A stretch of DNA of 41,294 nucleotides, from the IMG/VR virus record IMGVR_UViG_3300033074_000010, positions 1 to 41,294 of that record; one strand, given 5' to 3'. This DNA is from a virus (lineage: Duplodnaviria > Heunggongvirae > Uroviricota > Caudoviricetes). The position numbers and the translations under genes were made by a program. The notes beneath the pieces are model-generated. The model saw only the letters and a list, made by a program, of their open reading frames with translations, made no database searches and was not told the origin of the DNA. This document shows, piece by piece, positions 16,366 through 26,731 of this stretch (positions are counted from its first letter, which is position 1; each line of letters opens with the position of its first letter).

Positions 16366-18547
16366 TACCGCATCGCTGGTAGCGAGAGTAACGGCGGAAG
16401 GTGCCGCTACTGCCGCCAAGCAATTAGATAACTTTGCTGCAAGTGCAACAAAGGCCGAAGCCGCTACCGATAAAATGACGCCGGCGGTTAAAGAAGCGGC
16501 GGCAACAACACCTAAATTCGGTAGCGCAGTAACAAACGTTTCCTACCAGTTGCAGGACTTTATTGTTCAGGTAAGCAGCGGGCAGTCCGCTTTACTTGCG
16601 TTTAGCCAACAAGCCCCCCAATTGCTCTCCGGCTTCGGTGCGCTCGGGGCGGTGCTGGGTATCGCCGCGGCTGCCACCAGTGTGTTGTATAACGCTTTTG
16701 GCTCGACTAACGAAGCCACTAAAAACCTTGAGTCATCTACTAAAGCGCTTAACGCTGTTATCCAGACATCTAAAACCGGTGTCACAGAGTTATCTGACAG
16801 CTACATCCAACTGGCTACCGGCGTAGAAACGGCAACCGCGTCACAGGCACAACTTGAAGCGGGCATTGCTGGTGCGGAAAACACGATTGCCGCTATGAAC
16901 GCCAAGCTGAAAGAAACGGCTGACATTAGCTATTTAATGTCCGGTTCTATCACTGGTGCTAATGATTCTCTGCAAAAAGGGCAGACCAACACCTCCAGCT
17001 ACACCGGATTCCTGTCGAGTCTGGCAGACCAGTTCGGTGTAACAAAACAGCAGGCAGAAGAGTTAATCCCGTTACTGGCGAGTGTAGCCGAGAAGCCTAC
17101 GCAAGATAACGTGCTGGCGCTTACCACTCGTATGGGCGAGCTTAGCTCTGTTACTGACAGCAAAGTCACCCCGGCGTTTCGTAATTTCCGTGCAGAGCTT
17201 CTCAACGCGATTGCTACACAAGATACTGCTAAAAAGTCGTTAGATATTCTCAAGGCGGCGCAATTAGGTCAGGCAGAAGCAACTAACTCCAGCACAGAAG
17301 CAACTAAGCAGAACATCACTAAGATGATTGAGTACGCCCAGGCCCAGTTACAAGGTGCTAAAGCGGTGCTCGCATTTAACGCTGCTCAGGACAAACAGCA
17401 ATTTGCTCAGTCCGGTGCTACAGCGGAGCAGATAGCGCAGTACAACGAATTAATTAACAAGCAGTACGAGAAAGACGTTGCTAACTACGACGCCGCTCAG
17501 CAGAAGAAAGCAGAGGCAGAAGCTAAATCGGCAGCGGCCCGCGCTAAGTCCGAAGCCGACAGACAAGCCGCGCAGGAAAAACAGGCAGATGCTTTCCTTA
17601 CGCTTGTTAAGAAACAGAACTCTTCGGAGGTAGAGCAAGTAACTATTGCTGCCGCGGAGAAGCAAAAGCAGTTAGACGATTATTACGCGAAAGGCCTGGT
17701 CTCTCAGCAAGAGTACGAAACGGCATCAGCAGATATAGCCAACGCTGCGCAAGAGAAAAAAGACGCTATTGTTGCTAAAGAACAAGAGCAACAGGCAAAA
17801 CGCCAGGAACAGGCTGACGCGTATCTGGCACAGTTACAGGCTAACTTCGAAGGTGAATCCGCAGAGCTTGACCGCCAGTATCAGGTAAAACAGGATAAGC
17901 TGGACAAGTTCCACGAAGAAGGCTTGATTAGCGAGGAAGATTACCAGAACGCTCTTGCGGACCTGCGCCAACAAAAAGCAGATGCACTAATCGCCGCCGA
18001 CCTGTCGACCTGGGGCACTATCGCGGCTAACGTTAAAAGTGCAGCGAGCGAGAACACCGCTTTGTATAAAGCCGCGGCTATCACCGAAGCCACCATTTCA
18101 ACATATCTGGCGGCTACAAAAGCACTGGCAACTGGCGGACCAATCCTCGGCCCAATCCTCGCGGCGTCGACTATCGCGCTCGGTCTGGCTAACGTGGCTA
18201 AAATAAGTTCCGCGCGTGAACAGGGCGGTCAGTTATCTGCGGGGCAGGCTTCCACCATCGCCGAACGCGGTAAACCAGAAGTTATCATGCCCGCTGGTGC
18301 GTCACGAGTGCGCACCGCGCAGCAGATGAAGGAAATTATGGGGCAAAACGGGTCTTCTTCCGGCCCGTCTAATGTTACTATTGTGAACAACACGAGTTCT
18401 CAAATCGGCAACGTATCCACCGAGCAAGATGATGAAGGCCGTTTACGCATCATCATCGAAGAGCAAGTGGCGGCATCTTTGCAGAACAGTAACAGTAAGA
18501 TTAGCAAGGCCAGAAAGGCCACAAGAAACTCGCCGGGGTTTAAATAA
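16358..18547 (+). CDS. tail tape measure protein
   Basis: 729-aa Ala/Gln/Glu-rich predicted helical protein with hydrophobic segments, after chaperone ORFs. Confidence 0.8.
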   Translation: MADTASLVARVTAEGAATAAKQLDNFAASATKAEAATDKMTPAVKEAAATTPKFGSAVTNVSYQLQDFIVQVSSGQSALLAFSQQAPQLLSGFGALGAVLGIAAAATSVLYNAFGSTNEATKNLESSTKALNAVIQTSKTGVTELSDSYIQLATGVETATASQAQLEAGIAGAENTIAAMNAKLKETADISYLMSGSITGANDSLQKGQTNTSSYTGFLSSLADQFGVTKQQAEELIPLLASVAEKPTQDNVLALTTRMGELSSVTDSKVTPAFRNFRAELLNAIATQDTAKKSLDILKAAQLGQAEATNSSTEATKQNITKMIEYAQAQLQGAKAVLAFNAAQDKQQFAQSGATAEQIAQYNELINKQYEKDVANYDAAQQKKAEAEAKSAAARAKSEADRQAAQEKQADAFLTLVKKQNSSEVEQVTIAAAEKQKQLDDYYAKGLVSQQEYETASADIANAAQEKKDAIVAKEQEQQAKRQEQADAYLAQLQANFEGESAELDRQYQVKQDKLDKFHEEGLISEEDYQNALADLRQQKADALIAADLSTWGTIAANVKSAASENTALYKAAAITEATISTYLAATKALATGGPILGPILAASTIALGLANVAKISSAREQGGQLSAGQASTIAERGKPEVIMPAGASRVRTAQQMKEIMGQNGSSSGPSNVTIVNNTSSQIGNVSTEQDDEGRLRIIIEEQVAASLQNSNSKISKARKATRNSPGFK

Positions 18548-19947
18548 TGACCGACTTATATTTCCCTCGTAGCCTTAAGCCTATTGTGTCGAAAGGCTAC
18601 TCAATGACCAGACGCAACAACGTCTGGAGTGTCGATTTAGCCGGCGGCGGGGTGCGTCAGGGCCGTGACACATATTACGACGTGTTCCCCGTTAGCGTAA
18701 CCCTGATTACATCCGCAATGGGGCGACAGGCGTTTCTGTCGTTCCTTGAGAAAGTCGATGGTGGTGCGTCAAGTTTCTGGATGGCGCACGACTTCGGCAT
18801 GGGAATTGAGGATTACCAAGTCACCATCACGTCCACTATAGCGGAGTCCACCGAAGACGGGATTAACTGGACAATCACTTTCACGGCAACCGCCGAGAAA
18901 TCGCCGTTCCAGGACCTTGAGAACCAGTGCCTGATTAACAATCTGCCAGATTTGTATGGTTGCTATGGGGACTGTCTGGGTAGTTTCCTGAAAATATATG
19001 CGAACTACGAGACGACGTTCCCGCGCATCTGGAGCAATGAAGGGCCTGCAGGATACCCGCCGATTAACCTTCTGGCGTCGACTCTTGATAGCCGCATTGT
19101 GTATGACGGGCCGCAGGTTTATTACATCAACCGAAACGGCAATCTTGTGCAGTCCGCCGCCGGTGAATGGCCGCTTACGTTTATCGATGGCTCGGCAGTT
19201 GGGCGTGTGCCACCGGAGGCATCAGTAACTAACAGATTCCTATATTCAAGCAATTTCTCTTCGTCAAACTGGAACAAAGGTTTGGTGAGTGTATCAGTAT
19301 CTGAAACAGGTGTTTTAACAGCCGCAGGCACGTACGACGTAACTGCTACCGCCACAAGCGGTAACCACCTAATAAACCAGACTGTAGATGTTAGCGTTGG
19401 TGTTGGCGACATGGTTACTTTTAGTTTCTTCGCAAAAGCAAACGGATACAATTTCATACGGATGTACGTGCGAGAACTTCCTACAGTATTAGGCTCAGCA
19501 GTTGTGGATTTGCGGGATGGTAGCATTTATTCCGGCCCAGGTGGTACAGATGTAACCGACGTAGGCGGAGGGTGGTTCCGAATATCGGAGACGATCACAG
19601 CAACAGAAGATAAAACAATGAGCATACGGATGGACGCATGGATATATTCAGACGGAGTTACCGGGTCATTTACGGGGGATGGCGTTTCAGGGGTTAAATT
19701 ATCCGCGGCTACTGTAGAGGTAAACCAAAATACAACATCCCCGGTAATAACCGATGCCGTTGTTGTCACCCGCTCGACAGCGTCCGCGAAAGTAACCATG
19801 AACGGTGCAACAAGCATCGACATTACCTATTCTGACGGCTCCGTGGTTAGCATCCCCGCAGTTGACGGTTACGCTACCATCCCACAGGCCGATTCTGCGT
19901 GGGGTAGTAAATACATCACTCGTATTGATTTTAATGTGGACGGCTAA
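18547..19947 (+). CDS. minor tail protein (lambda M-like N-terminal region, putative)
   Basis: First gene after tape measure; N-terminal ~110 aa resembles lambda gpM-type proteins; long C-terminal extension. Confidence 0.5.
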   Translation: MTDLYFPRSLKPIVSKGYSMTRRNNVWSVDLAGGGVRQGRDTYYDVFPVSVTLITSAMGRQAFLSFLEKVDGGASSFWMAHDFGMGIEDYQVTITSTIAESTEDGINWTITFTATAEKSPFQDLENQCLINNLPDLYGCYGDCLGSFLKIYANYETTFPRIWSNEGPAGYPPINLLASTLDSRIVYDGPQVYYINRNGNLVQSAAGEWPLTFIDGSAVGRVPPEASVTNRFLYSSNFSSSNWNKGLVSVSVSETGVLTAAGTYDVTATATSGNHLINQTVDVSVGVGDMVTFSFFAKANGYNFIRMYVRELPTVLGSAVVDLRDGSIYSGPGGTDVTDVGGGWFRISETITATEDKTMSIRMDAWIYSDGVTGSFTGDGVSGVKLSAATVEVNQNTTSPVITDAVVVTRSTASAKVTMNGATSIDITYSDGSVVSIPAVDGYATIPQADSAWGSKYITRIDFNVDG

Positions 19948-19950
19948 CTT

Positions 19951-20466
19951 ATGAGTCAGGAATCAGTAGAAGCTGCCTATCGCCGTAAGTTGGCATCAAA
20001 TCCCGACGGCGAGATGGACTACATCACGTTGCAAATCAGCCACCCGTTGCTGTCAAAGACGTACTATCTTGTGCGCGGACTACAGGAACTCACGGCAACA
20101 CTGGAGACGGGCGAAACTATCACGTTCGAACCAACCCCGATGGAGGCGTCGGGGGCTGCTAACAATAGCGACATGGACCAGACGACCACGTTTACTTTAC
20201 CGGATATTCTCAATCAACTGGACGATGAGATGGATAAAATCCCTATGAGTAACACCGAGTTGCCGAAATTCGTCTTCCGCCGGTACGTCAGCACCGACCT
20301 GTCTTATCCGGCTGACGGCCCGGTCGTGTACGAGTTGCAGGCCATCAACCAGGAGAAGGGCGAGTTCTCCGCAGATGTCGGTACACCTATGCTGAACCAA
20401 CGAAGCACTGGTATACTAATGACACCTAAAGAGATACCGTTATTACGCGGCCTGTTGACCACATGA
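19951..20466 (+). CDS. minor tail protein (putative)
   Basis: 171-aa ORF in distal-tail block; position only. Confidence 0.4.
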   Translation: MSQESVEAAYRRKLASNPDGEMDYITLQISHPLLSKTYYLVRGLQELTATLETGETITFEPTPMEASGAANNSDMDQTTTFTLPDILNQLDDEMDKIPMSNTELPKFVFRRYVSTDLSYPADGPVVYELQAINQEKGEFSADVGTPMLNQRSTGILMTPKEIPLLRGLLTT

Positions 20467-20828
20467 ATATTAACGACTACACGGGCATACCTTACGACTT
20501 TCGCAAACGCAATTGCTGGCATCACGTGCGCATTGTACGGGCGGATGCCGGGCTAGAAACTCCGGCGTTCGATGTTACAAGCCCAACGGCGATTAACGAA
20601 GCGTTTGACGAAGGGCATCGCGACACGAAGGGGCTTACGAAGATTGATAAGCCTGAAAACTTCTGTGCGGTGCTTATGGGGTATCGCCGTGGTGGTCGTA
20701 TCGTGTGGCACGCGGGAGTTTACTTCGACGGGATGGTGAGTCATTGCGAGCTTGCGTCCCGTCAGGTACGGCTTGACCGGCTGGCGGACCTCAGAGACAC
20801 GTACACGGAGATTGAATTTTGGCGATAA
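20463..20828 (+). CDS. tail assembly protein, NlpC/P60-like (putative)
   Basis: Cys/His-containing segments NCWHHV and WHAGVY; position equivalent to lambda K. Confidence 0.4.
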   Translation: MNINDYTGIPYDFRKRNCWHHVRIVRADAGLETPAFDVTSPTAINEAFDEGHRDTKGLTKIDKPENFCAVLMGYRRGGRIVWHAGVYFDGMVSHCELASRQVRLDRLADLRDTYTEIEFWR

Positions 20829-23374
20829 TCCTGCACTACACTCGAAATGCGGAAGGCGCTTTCGACCGTACGAAACACGTCGGGATGCCGATGGAATTTG
20901 TCGTTAACCGTATCCCGGACGGGGTGCCTGCGCGCGTCTACCTCGGCGAGATTGGCGATGATACTGATGTTACAGACGACTTCGAAGCGCTTAAAGACGA
21001 AGACGCCGTGTACCATATTATTGAGGGTGCGGGTAGCGGGGCGCTTGGTGCGGTTAGTAAGGTATTTGGTTTTATCCTTAAGCCAATCGCTAAGTTGTTC
21101 GGCCTGAACATGTCCGCTAACGCCAACTACACGGCGACTAACAACCAGACAACGTCACCGAATAACAGCCTTACAGACCGCTCAAACAAACCACGCCCTT
21201 ACGAGCGCTCCTATGACATCTGCGGGACTGTGCAGACAATCCCTAACGACCTGATGCAGACGTATAAAGCGTTCAACTCCACGGGTGCTTTGCTGGAGTA
21301 TTCGTATTATGACGTGGGGCGCGGGCATCTGCATATTGAGGCTGATGGCGTAACGGAAGGCGACACCCTGATAAGCGACATCACAGGTTCCTCTGTTGCC
21401 ATATACGCGCCGTATACGTCACCGAACAACACCACATCGCCGCAACTACAAATCGGCGACGTCATTGACCAGAAACTTTATGTGACATACTCCAACGACG
21501 ACGTTGATGGTATTGTACTGAAAGCGCCAAACGACATTGGAGCTAACCCAAGCGCCGACGGCACAGCTAAACGTATTTCAAACACCGGCTACATCTACGA
21601 CCCGTCAGGCGACTCCGCTTTTTCTGAGTTTCTTAGCGTCGGTGATATCGCGGTGCTGAGCAACTTTGACGTTGCTGACGTCACTAACCTGAACGGCTCG
21701 TTTGAGGTTTTATACGTTGACGACTTCGAAGTGAGATTAGCCGTAAACGGTGCGTCTAACTGGGCGGCGTTGACCAGCGGACAGACGTACACGTTAACAG
21801 AGCGTTCAGATACGTTTATCGGGCCGAGCAACACCTATGACGTATCACTGACCGACTGGTATTACATGGTGCGCGGGGAAGTTGACCGCGTGCTCGCTAA
21901 CGTAGCCGGGCAGAACGGCCTCTACAAATACGACGGCGGCTATAACCGCACCAGCGTAACTGTAGAACTCCAGTACCAGATGATTGATTCCCAGCGTAAC
22001 CCGTTGAGTGATATTTACACGGTACAGGCTACAATTACGGGCAACAATACGGATTACGTCGGTACGTCTATCTATGGGCAGTTGCCTACTTCATCGCGTT
22101 TCCGTGCCCGTATGCGCCGTATAACGAATTTCGATAAGGACTACGACGGTACAGTAAGCGACGAGATAACGTTCATCAACCTGTACGGGCAGTCGCTGGA
22201 CACAACCCCACACTATGGCAACCGAACTACCGTACATTGCGCCCGTAAACAGACTCCACGTGCCGCCAGTATCGATAACCCGGAACTGCGCATGATTGCA
22301 ACCGAGATGTGCTACAAATACTTAGGCAATGGGGTATTCGATACAGTAATGTCGCCAAACACGCAGGCAGTACAATCACTAATTCGACTGGCCCGCGACC
22401 CCGCAGTTGGCAATCTGGAACTGACAACGGCAAACATGGACAAATTACTTGCTGTGCAAGAAGAAATTGAGTCCTATTTTGGTAGCGAATTAGCCGGACA
22501 ATTCTGCTACACGTTCGACGACTACGACATCACGATGCAGGACATCGTTCAGACCATAGCGGAAGCCGTGTTCTGTACTGCGTACCGTAAAGGTGCGGAT
22601 ATTATGCTGCGATTCGACCGTCCTGTTGCTGGACCCGAAATGGTGTTCACCCACCGCAGCAAAACTACAGGTACGGAGAAATGGACCCGCACGTTCAACG
22701 ATTCGACAACCTACGATAGCCTGTCGTTCTCATACATCGACCCGGATACTAACGTACAGGAAACGATTTATATCCCGGAAGAACTCGGAGCAAACACCGA
22801 GGAATATGAATCGAAGGGCGTACGTAACTATCAGCAGGCATATTGGCTGGCGTGGCGCCGCTACCAGCGCAATGCGTTAAGTAAAGTTGTTGTAGAGTTC
22901 GAAGCTACTGAAGAGGGGGCACTCGCTACACCGGGCGGCGTAATCAGTGTGGTCAAAGGCTCACGTATTGCACCACAGGATGGTTACGTTGTTGCCGTTA
23001 ATGGGCTTACGCTGACACTGTCACAGCCGGTTACGTTTACCCCCGGCGATGACCACTCCATCATCCTCAAGAAGCGCGACGGCTCTGTGCAGAGTATCTC
23101 TGTTATCAAAGGAAGCCATGACCGCGAAGTGATTATGCTCTCCGCGCCGGAGGAGGCAATCTACACGGGGAATAGTGCGCTAAAAACTGAGTTTTCATTC
23201 GGCAACGAAGCAAGGCATAATGCTCAGAAGATAGTTGTTTCTTCAATCGACCCGGGCGACGACCGCACGGTCAAGATTACGGGCTACAACTATGACGACG
23301 GATTCTATAAATACGACGGCGTCGCGCCATACGGCAGCGGTTTCTCCGACGGATTCAGCAATGGTTTTAATTAA
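20819..23374 (+). CDS. tail tip / host specificity protein (lambda I-J-like, putative)
   Basis: 851-aa ORF, TTG start after GGAG; N-terminal Gly-rich hydrophobic segment like lambda gpI C-terminus, remainder J-like by position. Confidence 0.5.
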   Translation: MAIILHYTRNAEGAFDRTKHVGMPMEFVVNRIPDGVPARVYLGEIGDDTDVTDDFEALKDEDAVYHIIEGAGSGALGAVSKVFGFILKPIAKLFGLNMSANANYTATNNQTTSPNNSLTDRSNKPRPYERSYDICGTVQTIPNDLMQTYKAFNSTGALLEYSYYDVGRGHLHIEADGVTEGDTLISDITGSSVAIYAPYTSPNNTTSPQLQIGDVIDQKLYVTYSNDDVDGIVLKAPNDIGANPSADGTAKRISNTGYIYDPSGDSAFSEFLSVGDIAVLSNFDVADVTNLNGSFEVLYVDDFEVRLAVNGASNWAALTSGQTYTLTERSDTFIGPSNTYDVSLTDWYYMVRGEVDRVLANVAGQNGLYKYDGGYNRTSVTVELQYQMIDSQRNPLSDIYTVQATITGNNTDYVGTSIYGQLPTSSRFRARMRRITNFDKDYDGTVSDEITFINLYGQSLDTTPHYGNRTTVHCARKQTPRAASIDNPELRMIATEMCYKYLGNGVFDTVMSPNTQAVQSLIRLARDPAVGNLELTTANMDKLLAVQEEIESYFGSELAGQFCYTFDDYDITMQDIVQTIAEAVFCTAYRKGADIMLRFDRPVAGPEMVFTHRSKTTGTEKWTRTFNDSTTYDSLSFSYIDPDTNVQETIYIPEELGANTEEYESKGVRNYQQAYWLAWRRYQRNALSKVVVEFEATEEGALATPGGVISVVKGSRIAPQDGYVVAVNGLTLTLSQPVTFTPGDDHSIILKKRDGSVQSISVIKGSHDREVIMLSAPEEAIYTGNSALKTEFSFGNEARHNAQKIVVSSIDPGDDRTVKITGYNYDDGFYKYDGVAPYGSGFSDGFSNGFN

Positions 23375-23386
23375 AGAGGACTCTAT

Positions 23387-25144
23387 ATGTCAAGCGGATG
23401 TGGTGACGTTTTAAGCCTGGCGGATTTACAAACCGCCAAGAAACACCAGATTTTCGAAGCCGAGGTTATAACCGGTAAATCCGGCGGTGTCGCTGGTGGC
23501 GCTGATATCGATTACGCGACAAATCAGGTTACTGGACAGACCCAGAAGACGTTACCCGCCGTGTTGCGTGATGCTGGTTTTTCTCCTGTATCGTGGGACT
23601 TTTCCACCGGCGGTACGTTAACAGTTAATGACCGCGACAAAGTGGTGTATGACCCGGTAAGCAAGACGTGGTACTCGTATGCAGGTACGTTGCCGGTTGT
23701 CGTCCCAGCATCGTTTAACCCGGTTGGTAACGCTAACTGGAAGCCGCAGACTGACCCGAATTTACGGAATGACCTGGCAAACCCGGACGATGGTTTGGGT
23801 GCGGACCTTGTTGCGTACAGCGCTACGGAAGCGGTGAGGGATGCTATAAGCCGTATTGACGGTGACATGTTCCAGGACCCATTAACAGCATGGCCTCTTG
23901 GTGGAACGTTAAAAATTAAACAAGGTGTTTATGAAGTAACGTCAGCTTTGGTACTCGATTATGGAAACTATGACGCCGCTTTTATAGGCTCCCCAGGTGT
24001 TCGCGCCCATTACGAAGGTGAGAACATGGCAGAGACTATCTTTAACTGCCAGGTTGCTGATTTCAACATACAGATGTACGGGGATAGTACATTCACATCT
24101 CAACGAGTACATGCTTACGATTCTGTAGGCGGCTTCACCCTTAAGGGAAGCGCCACTTCTTACGGCATGCATATTAAAGGCAAGGCGTATACGCGCCTGC
24201 ATGACTTCGTATCGTACGGGCACACTAACGGCGAGGGCCTGCGTCTGGAGGATGTACTGACATCTGATGTAGATAATGTGTATCTGCAAGCTAACCGCAT
24301 TGGCCTTCGAGTGCTTGCTAGCAGTACAGGTTCAGAGTTAAACGCAGTTAGTTTTAACCGTATTACCGCAAGCGATAATTCAAATTGGGGCGTGTTAGGG
24401 GACCGCTGGGGCGCAGGTGATACCATTACAGGGTTAACCTGTGAAGGTAATGGCACGCAAGGTGATACCGGTACTGGCGGAATGAACATCGCTGTGAACG
24501 GTTTAAATGGTTCAGGTGCACTCGTTTTGAACAACCCGTATTTCGAAGCGAATAAGGGTGGGGCTGACCTTGTAATTGATAACACGGGAACGCGCCCGGT
24601 AACCGTAATTATTAACGGTGGAAACTTCCATCGTGTTAGTAGTACGGCGTACACATTAAATAACTTAAGTATTACAAGTTCTGGCGGTGGTAAGGTTACT
24701 GTAGTCCTCAATGGCACTACGTTTCAGAGCGTAGGCTCTTACGTGCCGAGTAGTACGAGGCCTTATTGGGTCACTGGACCTAACTGCGAAGTAATAGACA
24801 TCGGCTGCACGTTCATGGAAGAAACTAGTAAAGCAACATCCGTTTCCTCTGGTAGCATCCCTCGCTCTGGAAGAATTAACGCTAATGGTAGTATTGATGT
24901 AGCTCCAGGTGTGTCCTCAGTAAACGTGGTAGCTACAGGTGTTTATGACGTGACATTTTCTAGGCAATTAGCCGCGTTAACTAATGGGTATGTGGTACAG
25001 ATAACGCCAATATCAGCCCCTGATTCCGTTAGTTGTGATGTCATATATAGTAGCACAACCCGCTTCAGGGTCACATTAAGGAACACTATCAGCGGCGCTG
25101 GCATAGCGAGTGCCTTCGCTTTTAGTGTTACAAGACTCGTGTAA
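23387..25144 (+). CDS. tailspike / tail fibre protein (putative beta-helix)
   Basis: 585-aa last structural gene; Gly/Asn/Thr-rich repetitive region consistent with beta-helix; RBS AGAGGA. Confidence 0.55.
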   Translation: MSSGCGDVLSLADLQTAKKHQIFEAEVITGKSGGVAGGADIDYATNQVTGQTQKTLPAVLRDAGFSPVSWDFSTGGTLTVNDRDKVVYDPVSKTWYSYAGTLPVVVPASFNPVGNANWKPQTDPNLRNDLANPDDGLGADLVAYSATEAVRDAISRIDGDMFQDPLTAWPLGGTLKIKQGVYEVTSALVLDYGNYDAAFIGSPGVRAHYEGENMAETIFNCQVADFNIQMYGDSTFTSQRVHAYDSVGGFTLKGSATSYGMHIKGKAYTRLHDFVSYGHTNGEGLRLEDVLTSDVDNVYLQANRIGLRVLASSTGSELNAVSFNRITASDNSNWGVLGDRWGAGDTITGLTCEGNGTQGDTGTGGMNIAVNGLNGSGALVLNNPYFEANKGGADLVIDNTGTRPVTVIINGGNFHRVSSTAYTLNNLSITSSGGGKVTVVLNGTTFQSVGSYVPSSTRPYWVTGPNCEVIDIGCTFMEETSKATSVSSGSIPRSGRINANGSIDVAPGVSSVNVVATGVYDVTFSRQLAALTNGYVVQITPISAPDSVSCDVIYSSTTRFRVTLRNTISGAGIASAFAFSVTRLV

Positions 25145-25150
25145 AACTAA

Positions 25151-25172
25151 GGCCCCGTTTGGGGCCTTTTCT
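25151..25172. terminator. bidirectional rho-independent terminator
   Basis: Stem GGCCCC/GGGGCC, GTTT loop, T4 after stem; sits between convergent modules. Confidence 0.7.
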
Positions 25173-25310
25173 CTACTCTTCTGATAACTTCTCCAGTACA
25201 AACGCCAGTTGCGCATTAGCGGCGTCTCTTTGCTGCCGTAGTCGTAGAACCTCCTCCTCAAGTTCCTTGATACGTTTTTGCAATGCGGGAATCGGGGCTA
25301 TGATGTTCAT
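25173..25310 (-). CDS. hypothetical small coiled-coil protein (45 aa)
   Basis: Hand-translated MNIIAPIPALQKRIKELEEEVLRLRQQRDAANAQLAFVLEKLSEE; start overlaps helicase stop. Confidence 0.35.
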   Translation of the reverse strand: MNIIAPIPALQKRIKELEEEVLRLRQQRDAANAQLAFVLEKLSEE

Positions 25311-26731
25311 TTCTTACCTCTTCTCTTCATATAATTAAGCAATTCTTCCTGGACCGATTTCTTCTCGTCTGTACGCGCGGCAACAACCTCGTCAAGAGTG
25401 TCTTTAGCGACTATGTGATAAAGGAACACCGGGCGTTCGTGGCCTGCCTGCTTCTGGCGCGTTGGGCCTATGCGCTCGACAACCTGCAAATAGTGCTCAA
25501 GGTTCCAGCCTTGTGAGATGAACGCCAGATGATGTCCGCCGTCCTGTAAATTCAAACCATGACCGGCTGATGCGGGATGCACGCATAAGATTTCGATTTC
25601 ACCGCGGTTCCACGCTTCCATCTGCTTATTGCCCTTAGCGCCTTTGGCGAACGCCTGTGCTTGTGGGAATCGCTTAAGGATACGCTCCAGTTCGTGCTTA
25701 AACTGATAGGCTACCAGTAACGGTGCGCCCTGTAACTCCTCAACAATTGACTCGAGCGCATCCAGTTTCGTGTCGTGCACTTTCTCCCAGTCTTTGGTTG
25801 CTTCTCCGTCGTCACCCGTCACATACACGGCACCGGAAGCAATCTGTAAACACTTCGACGTCTTCGCCGCCGCGTTAGCCGCTTCAACTTCTCCGCTCTC
25901 CAGTTCCGCAAATAACTTCTCCTCCATATCGGTATATGCCTGACGCGCCTTCTTCGGCAGGTCAATTTCCACTGGCACGATAATCGGCGCTTCGCAACCA
26001 AACCACTCGGCGGCGTCAATCGTGAGACTAATGTCTTTCATCTTCTGGTGAATCTCATTATCCGCGCCCGGGCGTGCGTGGTACTCCCGCGCTATCGCCG
26101 ACTTGCCTTTCTGTACTGAGTTAAACCAGCGGTCGGTGAATGCCGTGTACGAAGAACCGAGGCGCTCGCCAGCGTCGATAAACCAGTTCTGCCCCCACAA
26201 GTCCTTGAGGCCATTTGGCGATGGTGTGCCTGTCAGGTTAATGAACCGCTTAACCTTGCCGAACGCCACTTTGCTTAGCGCCTTAGCCCGTTTGCTTCCT
26301 CCAGAACGGCTACGGAAAGATTTCAGCTTCGTGCTCTCATCAGCAACGATAACCGTAAAAGGCCAGTCGTCTTTGCCGTAGTAGTCAATCAGCCACTCGA
26401 TAACTTCGTAGTTTGTGCACACCACGTTAGCATCTGACTCCAGCGCCGCGATACGGCGCTTCTCTGAACCGGTTGCGTCTACGACACTCAGACAGGGGAA
26501 GTTCCAACGTGCCTGTTCCGCGGGCCACGTACCGGACGCAACGCGCAACGGGGCGAGAATTAACACGCGGTCGTCGTCCGTAAGTTGCCCGTTGCGGAAC
26601 AGGCGGTTTAAAGTCCACAGGACGCTGCCGGTCTTCCCGGCGCCCATGCTTGCCCATATGTTACAGCGATTGTGCTGCAACATGAACGAGGTCATGAGCT
26701 TCTGATAGGGCCTTCTAGTGAATTTACCCAT
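25307..26731 (-). CDS. SF2 helicase (SNF2/DEAD-like)
   Basis: Walker A MGAGKTG, motif II VIVADES, motif III-like INLTGTP. Confidence 0.8.
   Translation of the reverse strand: MGKFTRRPYQKLMTSFMLQHNRCNIWASMGAGKTGSVLWTLNRLFRNGQLTDDDRVLILAPLRVASGTWPAEQARWNFPCLSVVDATGSEKRRIAALESDANVVCTNYEVIEWLIDYYGKDDWPFTVIVADESTKLKSFRSRSGGSKRAKALSKVAFGKVKRFINLTGTPSPNGLKDLWGQNWFIDAGERLGSSYTAFTDRWFNSVQKGKSAIAREYHARPGADNEIHQKMKDISLTIDAAEWFGCEAPIIVPVEIDLPKKARQAYTDMEEKLFAELESGEVEAANAAAKTSKCLQIASGAVYVTGDDGEATKDWEKVHDTKLDALESIVEELQGAPLLVAYQFKHELERILKRFPQAQAFAKGAKGNKQMEAWNRGEIEILCVHPASAGHGLNLQDGGHHLAFISQGWNLEHYLQVVERIGPTRQKQAGHERPVFLYHIVAKDTLDEVVAARTDEKKSVQEELLNYMKRRGKK

Follow-up and report, generated by a model that had tools for sequence, protein, structure and literature searches.

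The tail locus and its genomic setting

The tail operon of the window (by which we mean the whole stretch of DNA analysed, 41,294 nucleotides) carries two adjacent reading frames that the first-pass annotation had placed exactly, one of 851 aa (20819-23374, plus strand) and one of 585 aa (23387-25144, plus strand). The distal tail protein (DTP) and two small proteins in the positions of lambda gpL and gpK are encoded ahead of them, and the terminator that ends the operon is followed by a convergent SNF2 helicase gene (25307-26731, minus strand). All the features are collected in Table 1. The window is about 91% identical in nucleotide sequence to the K1H-like phages, and positions 1-25000 in particular are 89-92% identical over 64-74% to K1H, P AB-2017, UTI89UKE1 and others, which makes it a Kagunavirus genome (Guernseyvirinae), both by genome-wide nucleotide similarity and by synteny with the type members. 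The order DTP, L-like protein, K-like protein, 851-aa protein is common to the window, K1H and a second metagenome contig. Both genes are ordinary Kagunavirus parts, a tail-tip hub and an exchangeable tailspike of a putatively sugar-cutting kind, in a K1H-like E. coli phage, and the sole unusual point of this phage is its tailspike head, which is otherwise known from Shigella phages.

Table 1. Features of the tail-tip region, with the matches or predictions on which each is based.
Feature	Position	Strand	Basis
DTP, 466 aa	18547..19947	+	K1H DTP, Sf11 gp17, Rcc01080
DTP N-terminal ring domain and putative spike-docking helix, aa 1-162	18547-19032	+	K1H identity
DTP C-terminal appendage, aa 163-466	19033-19947	+	Sf11 gp17, GTA spike fibre
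Hub protein 1, 171 aa, DUF1833 minor tail protein, lambda gpL position	19951..20466	+	Pfam DUF1833, phrog_396
gpK-position protein, 121 aa	20463..20828	+	phrog_329, E 6e-12
Hub protein 2, 851 aa, I-J fusion, TipJ family	20819..23374	+	NF040662, 9occ_E, phrog_469, K1H homologue
Ubiquitin-like beta-grasp, hub aa 1-70	20819..21028	+	Predicted model
Gly-rich hydrophobic/amphipathic helix, hub aa 70-97, counterpart of the gpI hydrophobic helices	21026..21109	+	Model, composition
SPNNxLxxRxNxxRxxxRxxDIxGxV motif, hub aa 113-145	21155..21253	+	Conservation, profile alignments
TipJ-related hub domains, aa 354-831	21878..23311	+	NF040662; BLASTP to lambda J
Tailspike, 585 aa	23387..25144	+	9occ_G, AF2, Foldseek, ribosome-binding site
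Kagunavirus-type anchor, aa 1-127: helical N-terminal part (1-64), then neck domain (65-127)	23387..23767	+	K1H identity, match ends
Exchanged receptor-binding module	23768..25141	+	Identity to Sf11 gp13 and Sf101 spike
Tailspike beta-helix, aa 174-472	23906-24802	+	AF2 strands
Tailspike C-terminal beta-sandwich, aa 493-583	24863-25135	+	Part of exchanged module
Intrinsic terminator, end of tail operon	25150..25175	+	AGGCCCC-GTTT-GGGGCCT then T-rich run, direct sequence reading

Hub protein 1 matches Pfam DUF1833 (E 1e-16) and phrog_396, a 'minor tail protein' family (E 1e-51), and BLASTP finds no similarity between it and Sf11 gp16. As for the gpK-position protein, its relatives are annotated as peptidoglycan endopeptidases, and it has a weak similarity to the Cys motif of lambda gpK (E 0.22). 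A Pfam search with it returned zero matches, whereas lambda gpK gives both Prok-JAB and NLPC_P60, so that the pair of domains that defines gpK is not found in the 121-aa protein. From the weak similarity and the annotation of its relatives, it is probably an NlpC/P60-type peptidase domain alone, with no detectable JAB domain.

The hub protein

The 851-aa protein is a hub protein 2 of the TipJ family. It matches NCBIfam NF040662 (TipJ) with 380 bits over aa 354-831, for a cut-off of 140, as well as PDB 9occ_E (Sf11 gp14; E 1.6e-25) and phrog_469 (E 3.5e-255), while Pfam Phage-tail_3 reaches only 17.9 bits, below its cut-off of 23. The Sf11 protein is present in three copies per virion and is modelled over residues 81 to 827 only (PDB 9OCC; PMC12724387). 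The start codon of the gene is TTG, that of the 585-aa frame being ATG. This TTG is supported by several observations: a GGAG lies 8 nt upstream (20807-20810), the K1H homologue is annotated with an identical length and the same 10-nt overlap with the K-like gene, aa 1-22 are kept in relatives of 67% identity that lack an internal Met (P0112), and aa 3-21 make up strands one and two of a beta-grasp that is predicted with confidence. Internal ATG starts, which would give proteins of 827-829 aa as in about 70% of the database homologues, were rejected, since they would delete these two strands and since a relative of 67% identity lacks Met at that place.

The BLASTP alignment to lambda J covers hub aa 330-762 and J residues 86-533 (E 2e-6), and the hub chain ends about 90 aa past it, while J is 1132 residues long. 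The hub is therefore devoid of the FNIII, fibre and receptor-binding parts of J, and the C-terminal central fibre and receptor-binding domain of TipJ/gpJ are not found in it.

A gpI-like organisation at the N-terminus of the hub

It had been proposed that the 851-aa protein begins with a Gly-rich hydrophobic segment like the C-terminus of lambda gpI, reflecting either a fusion or a missing I gene. The segment is real (aa 66-97 are 72% A/V/L/I/F/M/G, with 19% Gly), but it does not begin the protein, as it is preceded by a 70-aa ubiquitin-like domain, and its match is to the middle of gpI instead, where the hydrophobic helices lie (residues ~96-155). In lambda, gpI plugs the lumen of the tip and is predicted to have membrane helices. 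The N-terminal domain of the hub is a ThiS/MoaD-like beta-grasp, as in lambda gpI and the TAPI proteins, and at its end a conserved Gly is followed by the Gly-rich hydrophobic region: the window reads HIIEGAGSGALGAV, and the consensus of 95 relatives has PG and then a hydrophobic stretch. A conserved Gly after the last TAPI beta-grasp strand was described by Iyer et al. 2006 (PMC1779556). The model places a helix at aa 75-93. The stretch around it (aa 70-97) is the most variable among 120 close homologues, in which both transmembrane-like and amphipathic alleles occur; the allele of the window is amphipathic, with a Kyte-Doolittle value of 1.36, and is not clearly membrane-spanning. Beyond the helix, S113, N123, R126 and G136 of the polar motif are invariant in 95 diverse relatives, and profile alignments place this motif against gpI 153-203, which suggests it as a candidate for the plug and first strand, with gpI ~159-200 as the equivalent.

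The module is encoded between K and J, like gpI, but it opens the J-like gene, whose 5' end overlaps the K-like gene by 10 nt. A gpI-like N-terminus is indeed what we find in the hub, and the window, K1H, the second metagenome contig and Sf11 have no separate I gene. In 180 clusters, the module stands at the beginning of proteins of 800-1500 aa. Hits of only 122-268 aa, which could have been stand-alone gpI-like relatives, all break off within the J-like body and come from the ends of contigs. Matches of aa 27-79 to designed alpha-repeat/HEAT proteins of the PDB were likewise set aside as a composition artefact of 'LGEIGDD..ALKDED', in a region that is predicted to be beta-grasp. An I-J fusion beside a K-like gene without detectable JAB domain is not new: it has been known since 2006, when TAPI-TAPJ fusions with NlpC-only K proteins were described by Iyer et al. 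(PMC1779556).

The resemblance to gpI could also be convergent or superficial, the beta-grasp and helix being an unrelated assembly or chaperone module devoid of any plug or membrane role. Pfam and NCBIfam give zero matches on the hub N-terminus and, in particular, PF06805 (Lambda_tail_I) gives none up to E 10 with hub aa 1-130, hub aa 1-230 or the Sf11 gp14 N-terminus, for an E of 1e-28 with lambda gpI itself; a Foldseek search with the N-terminal model in a database of viral structure predictions (BFVD) returned close relatives only, with no gpI-like protein among them; and Gly/Ala-rich hydrophobic segments can align through composition alone. The hhalign alignments to the gpI family are weak (P 0.0016-0.003, probability only 11-16%), but they are colinear and in constant register, and the gpI HMM, run on 116 family N-termini, hits 6 at E < 0.01, again in a consistent register, the window sequence not being one of them. 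This shared register, which is seen in many independent family members and includes the polar motif after the helix, argues against an accident of composition, as do the same order of the three elements, the same position between a K-like gene and a J-like body, the conserved Gly after the last beta-grasp strand, and the TAPI-TAPJ fusions on record in the literature. We therefore consider a convergent origin unlikely.

The tailspike and its exchanged head

The AAAGAGGA ribosome-binding site precedes the ATG of the tailspike gene. The reading of the 585-aa protein as a beta-helix tailspike, which had been based on its Gly/Asn/Thr-rich repeats, holds in composition as in structure. Indeed, G/N/T/S make up 40% of aa 174-472, for 20-27% in the tape measure and two replication-side proteins, and the AF2 monomer (mean pLDDT 84.5) has beta-helix strands from aa 174 to 472. 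Structure prediction and Foldseek agree on this point, the latter giving 83 PDB hits at E <= 0.001, with TM-scores of only 0.2-0.44, of which the top ones are all phage tailspikes, the Sf6 TSP included. The protein belongs to the family of Sf11 gp13, as it matches PDB 9occ_G (E 2.3e-245) and phrog_17420 (E 2e-195).

The spike is a mosaic. Its aa 1-64 are identical to the K1H spike, and the nucleotide matches to relatives end at 23581 or at 23766-23772. With Sf11 gp13, the first 38 aa cannot be aligned, aa 39-138 are 29% identical to the N-domain (E 2e-8), and the receptor-binding part is 71% identical, for 68% with the Sf101 tailspike. The exchanged module is in no Kagunavirus record of the phage collection searched, and among homologues it is found behind several different N-terminal anchors. 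E353, E387 and D394, which do not vary across 69 homologues, are candidate catalytic residues; the Sf11 gp13-type family, the window spike included, would have a glycanase activity. In Sf11, only residues 4-59 of the spike were modelled experimentally (PDB 9OCC); each virion has 18 copies of the spike, attached to the DTP through a helix of the latter that binds the tailspike N-termini (PMC12724387).

The distal tail protein and its appendage

The DTP of the window is also made of two parts. Over aa 1-162 it shares 91% identity with the DTP of K1H, which is 166 aa long, and the rest forms an appendage. Here DTP aa 159-464 match Sf11 gp17 (PDB 9occ_C; E 7e-91) and aa 221-432 match Rcc01080, the head spike fibre of RcGTA (6tb9; E 2.4e-11), with a further match to NCBIfam GTA_spike_fiber (E 1e-25). 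Kagunavirus genomes differ in whether they have this appendage, and its versions group in identity classes of ~91-96%, 57% and 51-53%. A joint transfer of spike head and appendage from an Sf11-like phage was considered and rejected: K1ind1-3 pair the same appendage allele (95% identity) with other spikes, and the appendages of most Kagunavirus genomes are diverged.

Receptor use

From the two proteins, the first-pass annotation had deduced a dual receptor recognition. This does not follow, because the hub is not established as a second receptor-binding protein. The related phages that have been studied gave only glycan dependence among the candidates tested. Sf11 fails on waaC, waaG and waaL mutants, which means that full-length LPS is essential to it, while it does not need OmpA, OmpC or OmpF (PMC12724387); BASEL Kagunavirus isolates depend completely on O-antigen; and for the Jerseyvirus PhSAL5, OmpC, BtuB and FliC are all dispensable.

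That the hub could nevertheless be a second, independent adhesin, engaging a specific secondary receptor once the spike has dealt with the glycan, so that two receptors would be needed, is suggested by the use of the central tip for a protein receptor in related siphophages (lambda, T5), and by hub aa 241-340. Among relatives that are 81-87% identical, this segment is only 20-45% identical between flanks of 95-100%, and thus looks like a replaced internal cassette, a pattern typical of host-contact surfaces. Yet the chain stops short of the lambda J fibre and receptor-binding part, its C-terminal half shows 94-99% conservation among 120 homologues, and the hub is 98% identical to that of K1H, although K1H attacks the K1 capsule with a different spike, an endosialidase; the hub is therefore not the specificity determinant. 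With the glycan dependence described above, this makes the hub improbable as a second adhesin. The better candidate for this role is the DTP appendage of 300 aa, which might bind a surface polysaccharide and aid adsorption beside the tailspike. It resembles the GTA head spike fibre, it varies in presence and in identity class among Kagunavirus, and in Sf11 it projects outwards from the tail (PMC12724387). On the other hand, the same allele goes with different spikes in K1ind1-3 and is thus not tuned to the glycan of the spike, and K1H does without it, so that we regard this reading as possible but somewhat doubtful. A more elaborate arrangement, in which the spike head, the DTP appendage and hub aa 241-340 would be three independently exchangeable host-contact modules, and in which the K-like peptidase would clip the ubiquitin-like domain of the hub and so free the helix into the outer membrane, seems very unlikely to us.

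A model of the tail tip

We consider it highly probable that the tip combines an I-J fusion hub, which closes the tube, with a swapped beta-helix tailspike of the Sf11 type, which sets the host range. The 851-aa protein would act as hub protein 2 of the baseplate, a trimer that closes the tail tube, with lambda gpI and the hub part of gpJ in one polypeptide, in the order ubiquitin-like domain, hydrophobic helix, conserved plug-like motif and hub domains. [quoted passage not shown] By analogy with the cryo-EM structure of Sf11, six tailspike trimers may dock by their N-termini on the helix of a hexameric DTP; this docking is an extrapolation, since the Sf11 tip is a distant one, with a dissimilar gp16 and a spike to which the first 38 aa cannot be aligned. 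The C-terminal 460 aa of the spike, as a horizontally exchanged module, would bind and probably cleave an O-antigen related to that of Shigella flexneri, and would thereby set the host range.

The window thus adds one more case in which the host range of a small siphophage is set by the swap of a tailspike head at a conserved junction, and one and the same head is passed among siphophages and podophages that infect E. coli and Shigella. In phage therapy or engineering, the window offers a natural Kagunavirus chassis with a Shigella-type spike, and the I-J fusion gives a useful natural comparison when the role of lambda gpI is to be tested.

Comparison with known systems

The tailspikes of Sf6, P22, HK620 and CBA120 share with that of the window a right-handed beta-helix, a C-terminal beta-sandwich and an exchangeable N-terminal anchor, but their identity to it is only 10-14%, and a PDB sequence search with the window spike gave no match apart from Sf11 gp13. 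With lambda gpI and gpJ, the window hub has in common the N-terminal layout and the match to the J hub domains; it differs in that the parts are fused in one chain, with one hydrophobic helix where lambda has two, with no PF06805 match, and without the FNIII, fibre and LamB-binding parts of J. The TAPI-TAPJ fusions (Iyer, Burroughs & Aravind 2006, PMC1779556) have the same architecture and a K-like neighbour with undetectable JAB, but those examples are prophages, while the window is a Kagunavirus of virulent type whose N-terminus is too diverged for the Pfam model.

Sf11 (PDB 9OCC; J Virol 2025, PMC12724387) has a spike receptor-binding part that is 71% identical to that of the window, a homologous DTP appendage, and a homologous hub protein 2 that has the same N-terminal beta-grasp and hydrophobic helix. 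It is, however, of another genus (Cedarrivervirus), with a different first spike helix, no K-like gene, and a hub protein 1 that is not detectably similar. The K1H/K1G group (Kagunavirus, Guernseyvirinae) shares with the window its gene order, about 91% of its nucleotides, 98% of its hub and an identical spike aa 1-64; the difference is that K1H has a 984-aa endosialidase spike and a 166-aa DTP, whereas the window has a 585-aa spike of the Sf11 type and a 466-aa DTP.

Genome context and tail operon

Judged by nucleotide identity, the window is a Kagunavirus (Guernseyvirinae) genome: the relatives K1H, P AB-2017, UTI89UKE1 and others match 64-74% of its first 25 kb at 89-92% identity. The tail gene order is common to the window and K1H, and in both an 851-aa protein gene overlaps a K-like gene by 10 nt. 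The 851-aa and 585-aa ORFs called in the first-pass annotation both exist, and they close the tail operon; beyond the terminator lies a convergent SNF2 helicase gene. The identical 585-aa protein, with the same neighbours, occurs a second time in an unrelated sequencing run.

Features of the tail region
Feature	Coordinates	Strand	Remark
Opposite-strand genes	13935-15622	-	between tail tube region and tail chaperones
Tail chaperones	15587-16365	+	two adjacent ORFs, 138 aa and 117 aa, upstream of tape measure
Tape measure	16358-18547		
Distal tail protein (DTP)	18547-19947	+	
DUF1833 minor tail protein	19951-20466		
gpK-position protein	20463-20828	+	121 aa
Hub protein	20819-23374	+	851 aa, TTG start
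5' end of hub gene	20819-20890	+	includes first two strands of ubiquitin-like domain
Hydrophobic helix of hub	21044-21118	+	hub aa 76-100
Internal cassette of hub	21539-21838	+	hub aa 241-340
Tailspike	23387-25144	+	585 aa
Tailspike junction	23749-23800	+	tailspike aa 122-138
Hairpin terminator	25150-25175		clear; 3' of 585-aa gene

The chaperone ORFs are the counterpart of a K1H pair that is annotated as joined and frameshifted (compare lambda G/GT). The opposite-strand genes split the structural module, and the matching K1H block is annotated as exonuclease, polynucleotide kinase and ATP-binding protein.

The hub as a probable I-J fusion

The NCBIfam 'TipJ family' model matches aa 354-831 of the 851-aa protein far over its cut-off, gp14 of the Shigella siphophage Sf11 ('baseplate hub 2 protein', PDB 9OCC) matches it at E 1.6e-25, and residues 86-533 of lambda J align with aa 330-762 by BLASTP. 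Lambda J goes on for 600 more residues, which hold its FNIII domains, central fibre and LamB-binding domain; the 851-aa protein lacks that region and ends about 90 aa after the alignment, so that it is a hub with no lambda-type adhesin.

We place its start at the TTG, because a GGAG lies 8 nt upstream, aa 1-22 are kept in relatives at 67% identity, including one that lacks a Met at the internal positions, and aa 3-9 and 15-21 are modelled as strands one and two of a domain with pLDDT >90. An internal ATG, giving an 824-829-aa product, is the annotated start in about 70% of database homologues; we rejected it, as it removes both strands of the ubiquitin-like domain, and its annotation looks like a systematic gene-calling error due to the TTG start.

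The first-pass annotation had proposed that this protein begins with a gpI-like segment, through fusion or loss of a separate I gene. The fusion idea was right in substance: the layout is gpI-like, and no separate I gene was found in the window, K1H, Sf11 or a second contig. The hydrophobic segment had been described slightly inaccurately, since it does not open the protein and does not correspond to the C-terminus of gpI. In lambda gpI, the N-terminal domain (Pfam Lambda_tail_I, aa 14-97) is not resolved structurally; the protein also has a pair of hydrophobic helices, a plug at aa 159-175 and strands pairing with gpJ. Profile alignments set the hub helix and the invariant SPNN..R.N..R...DI.G motif opposite the H2 helix, the plug and the first strand of gpI, in an identical register in many family members, though with weak statistics: hhalign gave P 0.002-0.003, and a ten-sequence gpI HMM found 6 of 116 family N-termini, Sf11 gp14 among them, at E 8e-5 to 0.01. 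Pfam PF06805 did not match the hub N-terminus, and Foldseek against viral models found no gpI-like protein. The N-terminal module starts 800-1500-aa proteins in 180 clusters (50% identity clustering); short matches considered as stand-alone gpI-like proteins proved to be fragments.

Such fusions are already known. In TAPI as Iyer, Burroughs and Aravind (2006, PMC1779556) described it, a ubiquitin-like domain is followed by a Gly-rich linker and then a C-terminal domain, and they described TAPI-TAPJ fusions as accompanied by NlpC-only K proteins; the window fits this description as far as its K-like protein can be assigned. The gpK-position protein, whose adjoining hub carries the ubiquitin-like domain, resembles lambda gpK only weakly, in a Cys motif, and has no match in Pfam or NCBIfam. 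Sf11, unlike the window, has no such gene.

A tailspike with an exchanged head

In an AF2 model (mean pLDDT 84.5) the predicted beta-helix of the 585-aa protein spans aa 174-472; it is preceded by an N-terminal helix and a small beta domain at aa 43-120, and the C-terminal part folds as a beta-sandwich. Foldseek returned phage tailspikes throughout, with the Sf6 TSP having the best target-normalised TM-score (0.44). Residues E353, E387 and D394, invariant in 69 homologues, are candidate catalytic residues; the spike is probably enzymatically active.

The first 64 residues are identical to K1H, the nucleotide similarity of the gene to relatives ends at 23581 or 23766-23772, and the Sf11 spike neck is distantly homologous to aa 39-138. 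The receptor-binding head is 71% identical to the Sf11 spike, gp13, and 68% to that of podophage Sf101, and was found in no Kagunavirus of a 50,697-genome collection. In a large protein database the same head lies behind several anchors, including the Kagunavirus and Sf11 types, the P22 head-binding domain and the T7 tail-fibre N-terminus. Spikes with unrelated heads and unrelated anchors almost all share D123, L130 and G138, which mark the conserved junction of head exchange.

One adhesin or two

It had been claimed that hub and tailspike are two adhesins implying dual receptor recognition. This is not supported, and most of the evidence is against the hub as a second adhesin. Besides lacking a lambda-type adhesin, it shares 98% identity with the K1H hub, although K1H has an endosialidase spike directed at the K1 capsule, and its C-terminal half is 94-99% conserved over 120 homologues. 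Experiments on relatives found glycan dependence alone: the Kagunavirus isolates of the BASEL collection are fully O-antigen-dependent, the BASEL authors taking the spike as the terminal-receptor binder; Sf11 requires full-length LPS, with OmpA, OmpC and OmpF dispensable (PMC12724387); and Jerseyvirus PhSAL5 requires O-antigen, with OmpC, BtuB and FliC dispensable. Slight support for a hub adhesin comes from its aa 241-340, which are swapped between near-identical flanks in 81-87%-identical relatives, and from the two alleles of its hydrophobic helix.

The aa 241-340 segment, at 20-45% identity in five such homologues (P0104, P0106, P0108, P0110 and P0111) whose C-terminal 400 aa are 95-100% identical, behaves as an exchangeable internal cassette. 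Among 120 close homologues no stretch varies more than the helix, which has flanks of more than 90% identity and falls into a transmembrane-like class (GALVVGALVALVVVAATVLL, about 85 of 121 sequences) and an amphipathic one, to which the window belongs.

The DTP is by its sequence a chimera: its aa 1-162 share 91% identity with the 166-aa K1H protein, while aa 163-466 form an appendage with homology to that of Sf11 gp17 and to the head spike fibre of RcGTA (PDB 6tb9). As a candidate accessory glycan binder, this appendage is preferable to the hub. Some Kagunavirus genomes have the appendage, some lack it and some carry a strongly diverged form; we tested whether it travels with spike type, and it does not.

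Proposed mechanism and comparison with known tails

By analogy with the Sf11 structure, six spike trimers would be docked on a helix of the hexameric DTP. The structures of Sf11 and lambda suggest that the spikes bind and probably cut O-antigen, drawing the tip up to the membrane, and that the hub trimer opens and its N-terminal helix and plug exit the lumen with the tape measure. The tail tip is an ordinary one of a known phage genus, new only in that a Kagunavirus chassis carries a spike head of the Sf11/Sf101 type.
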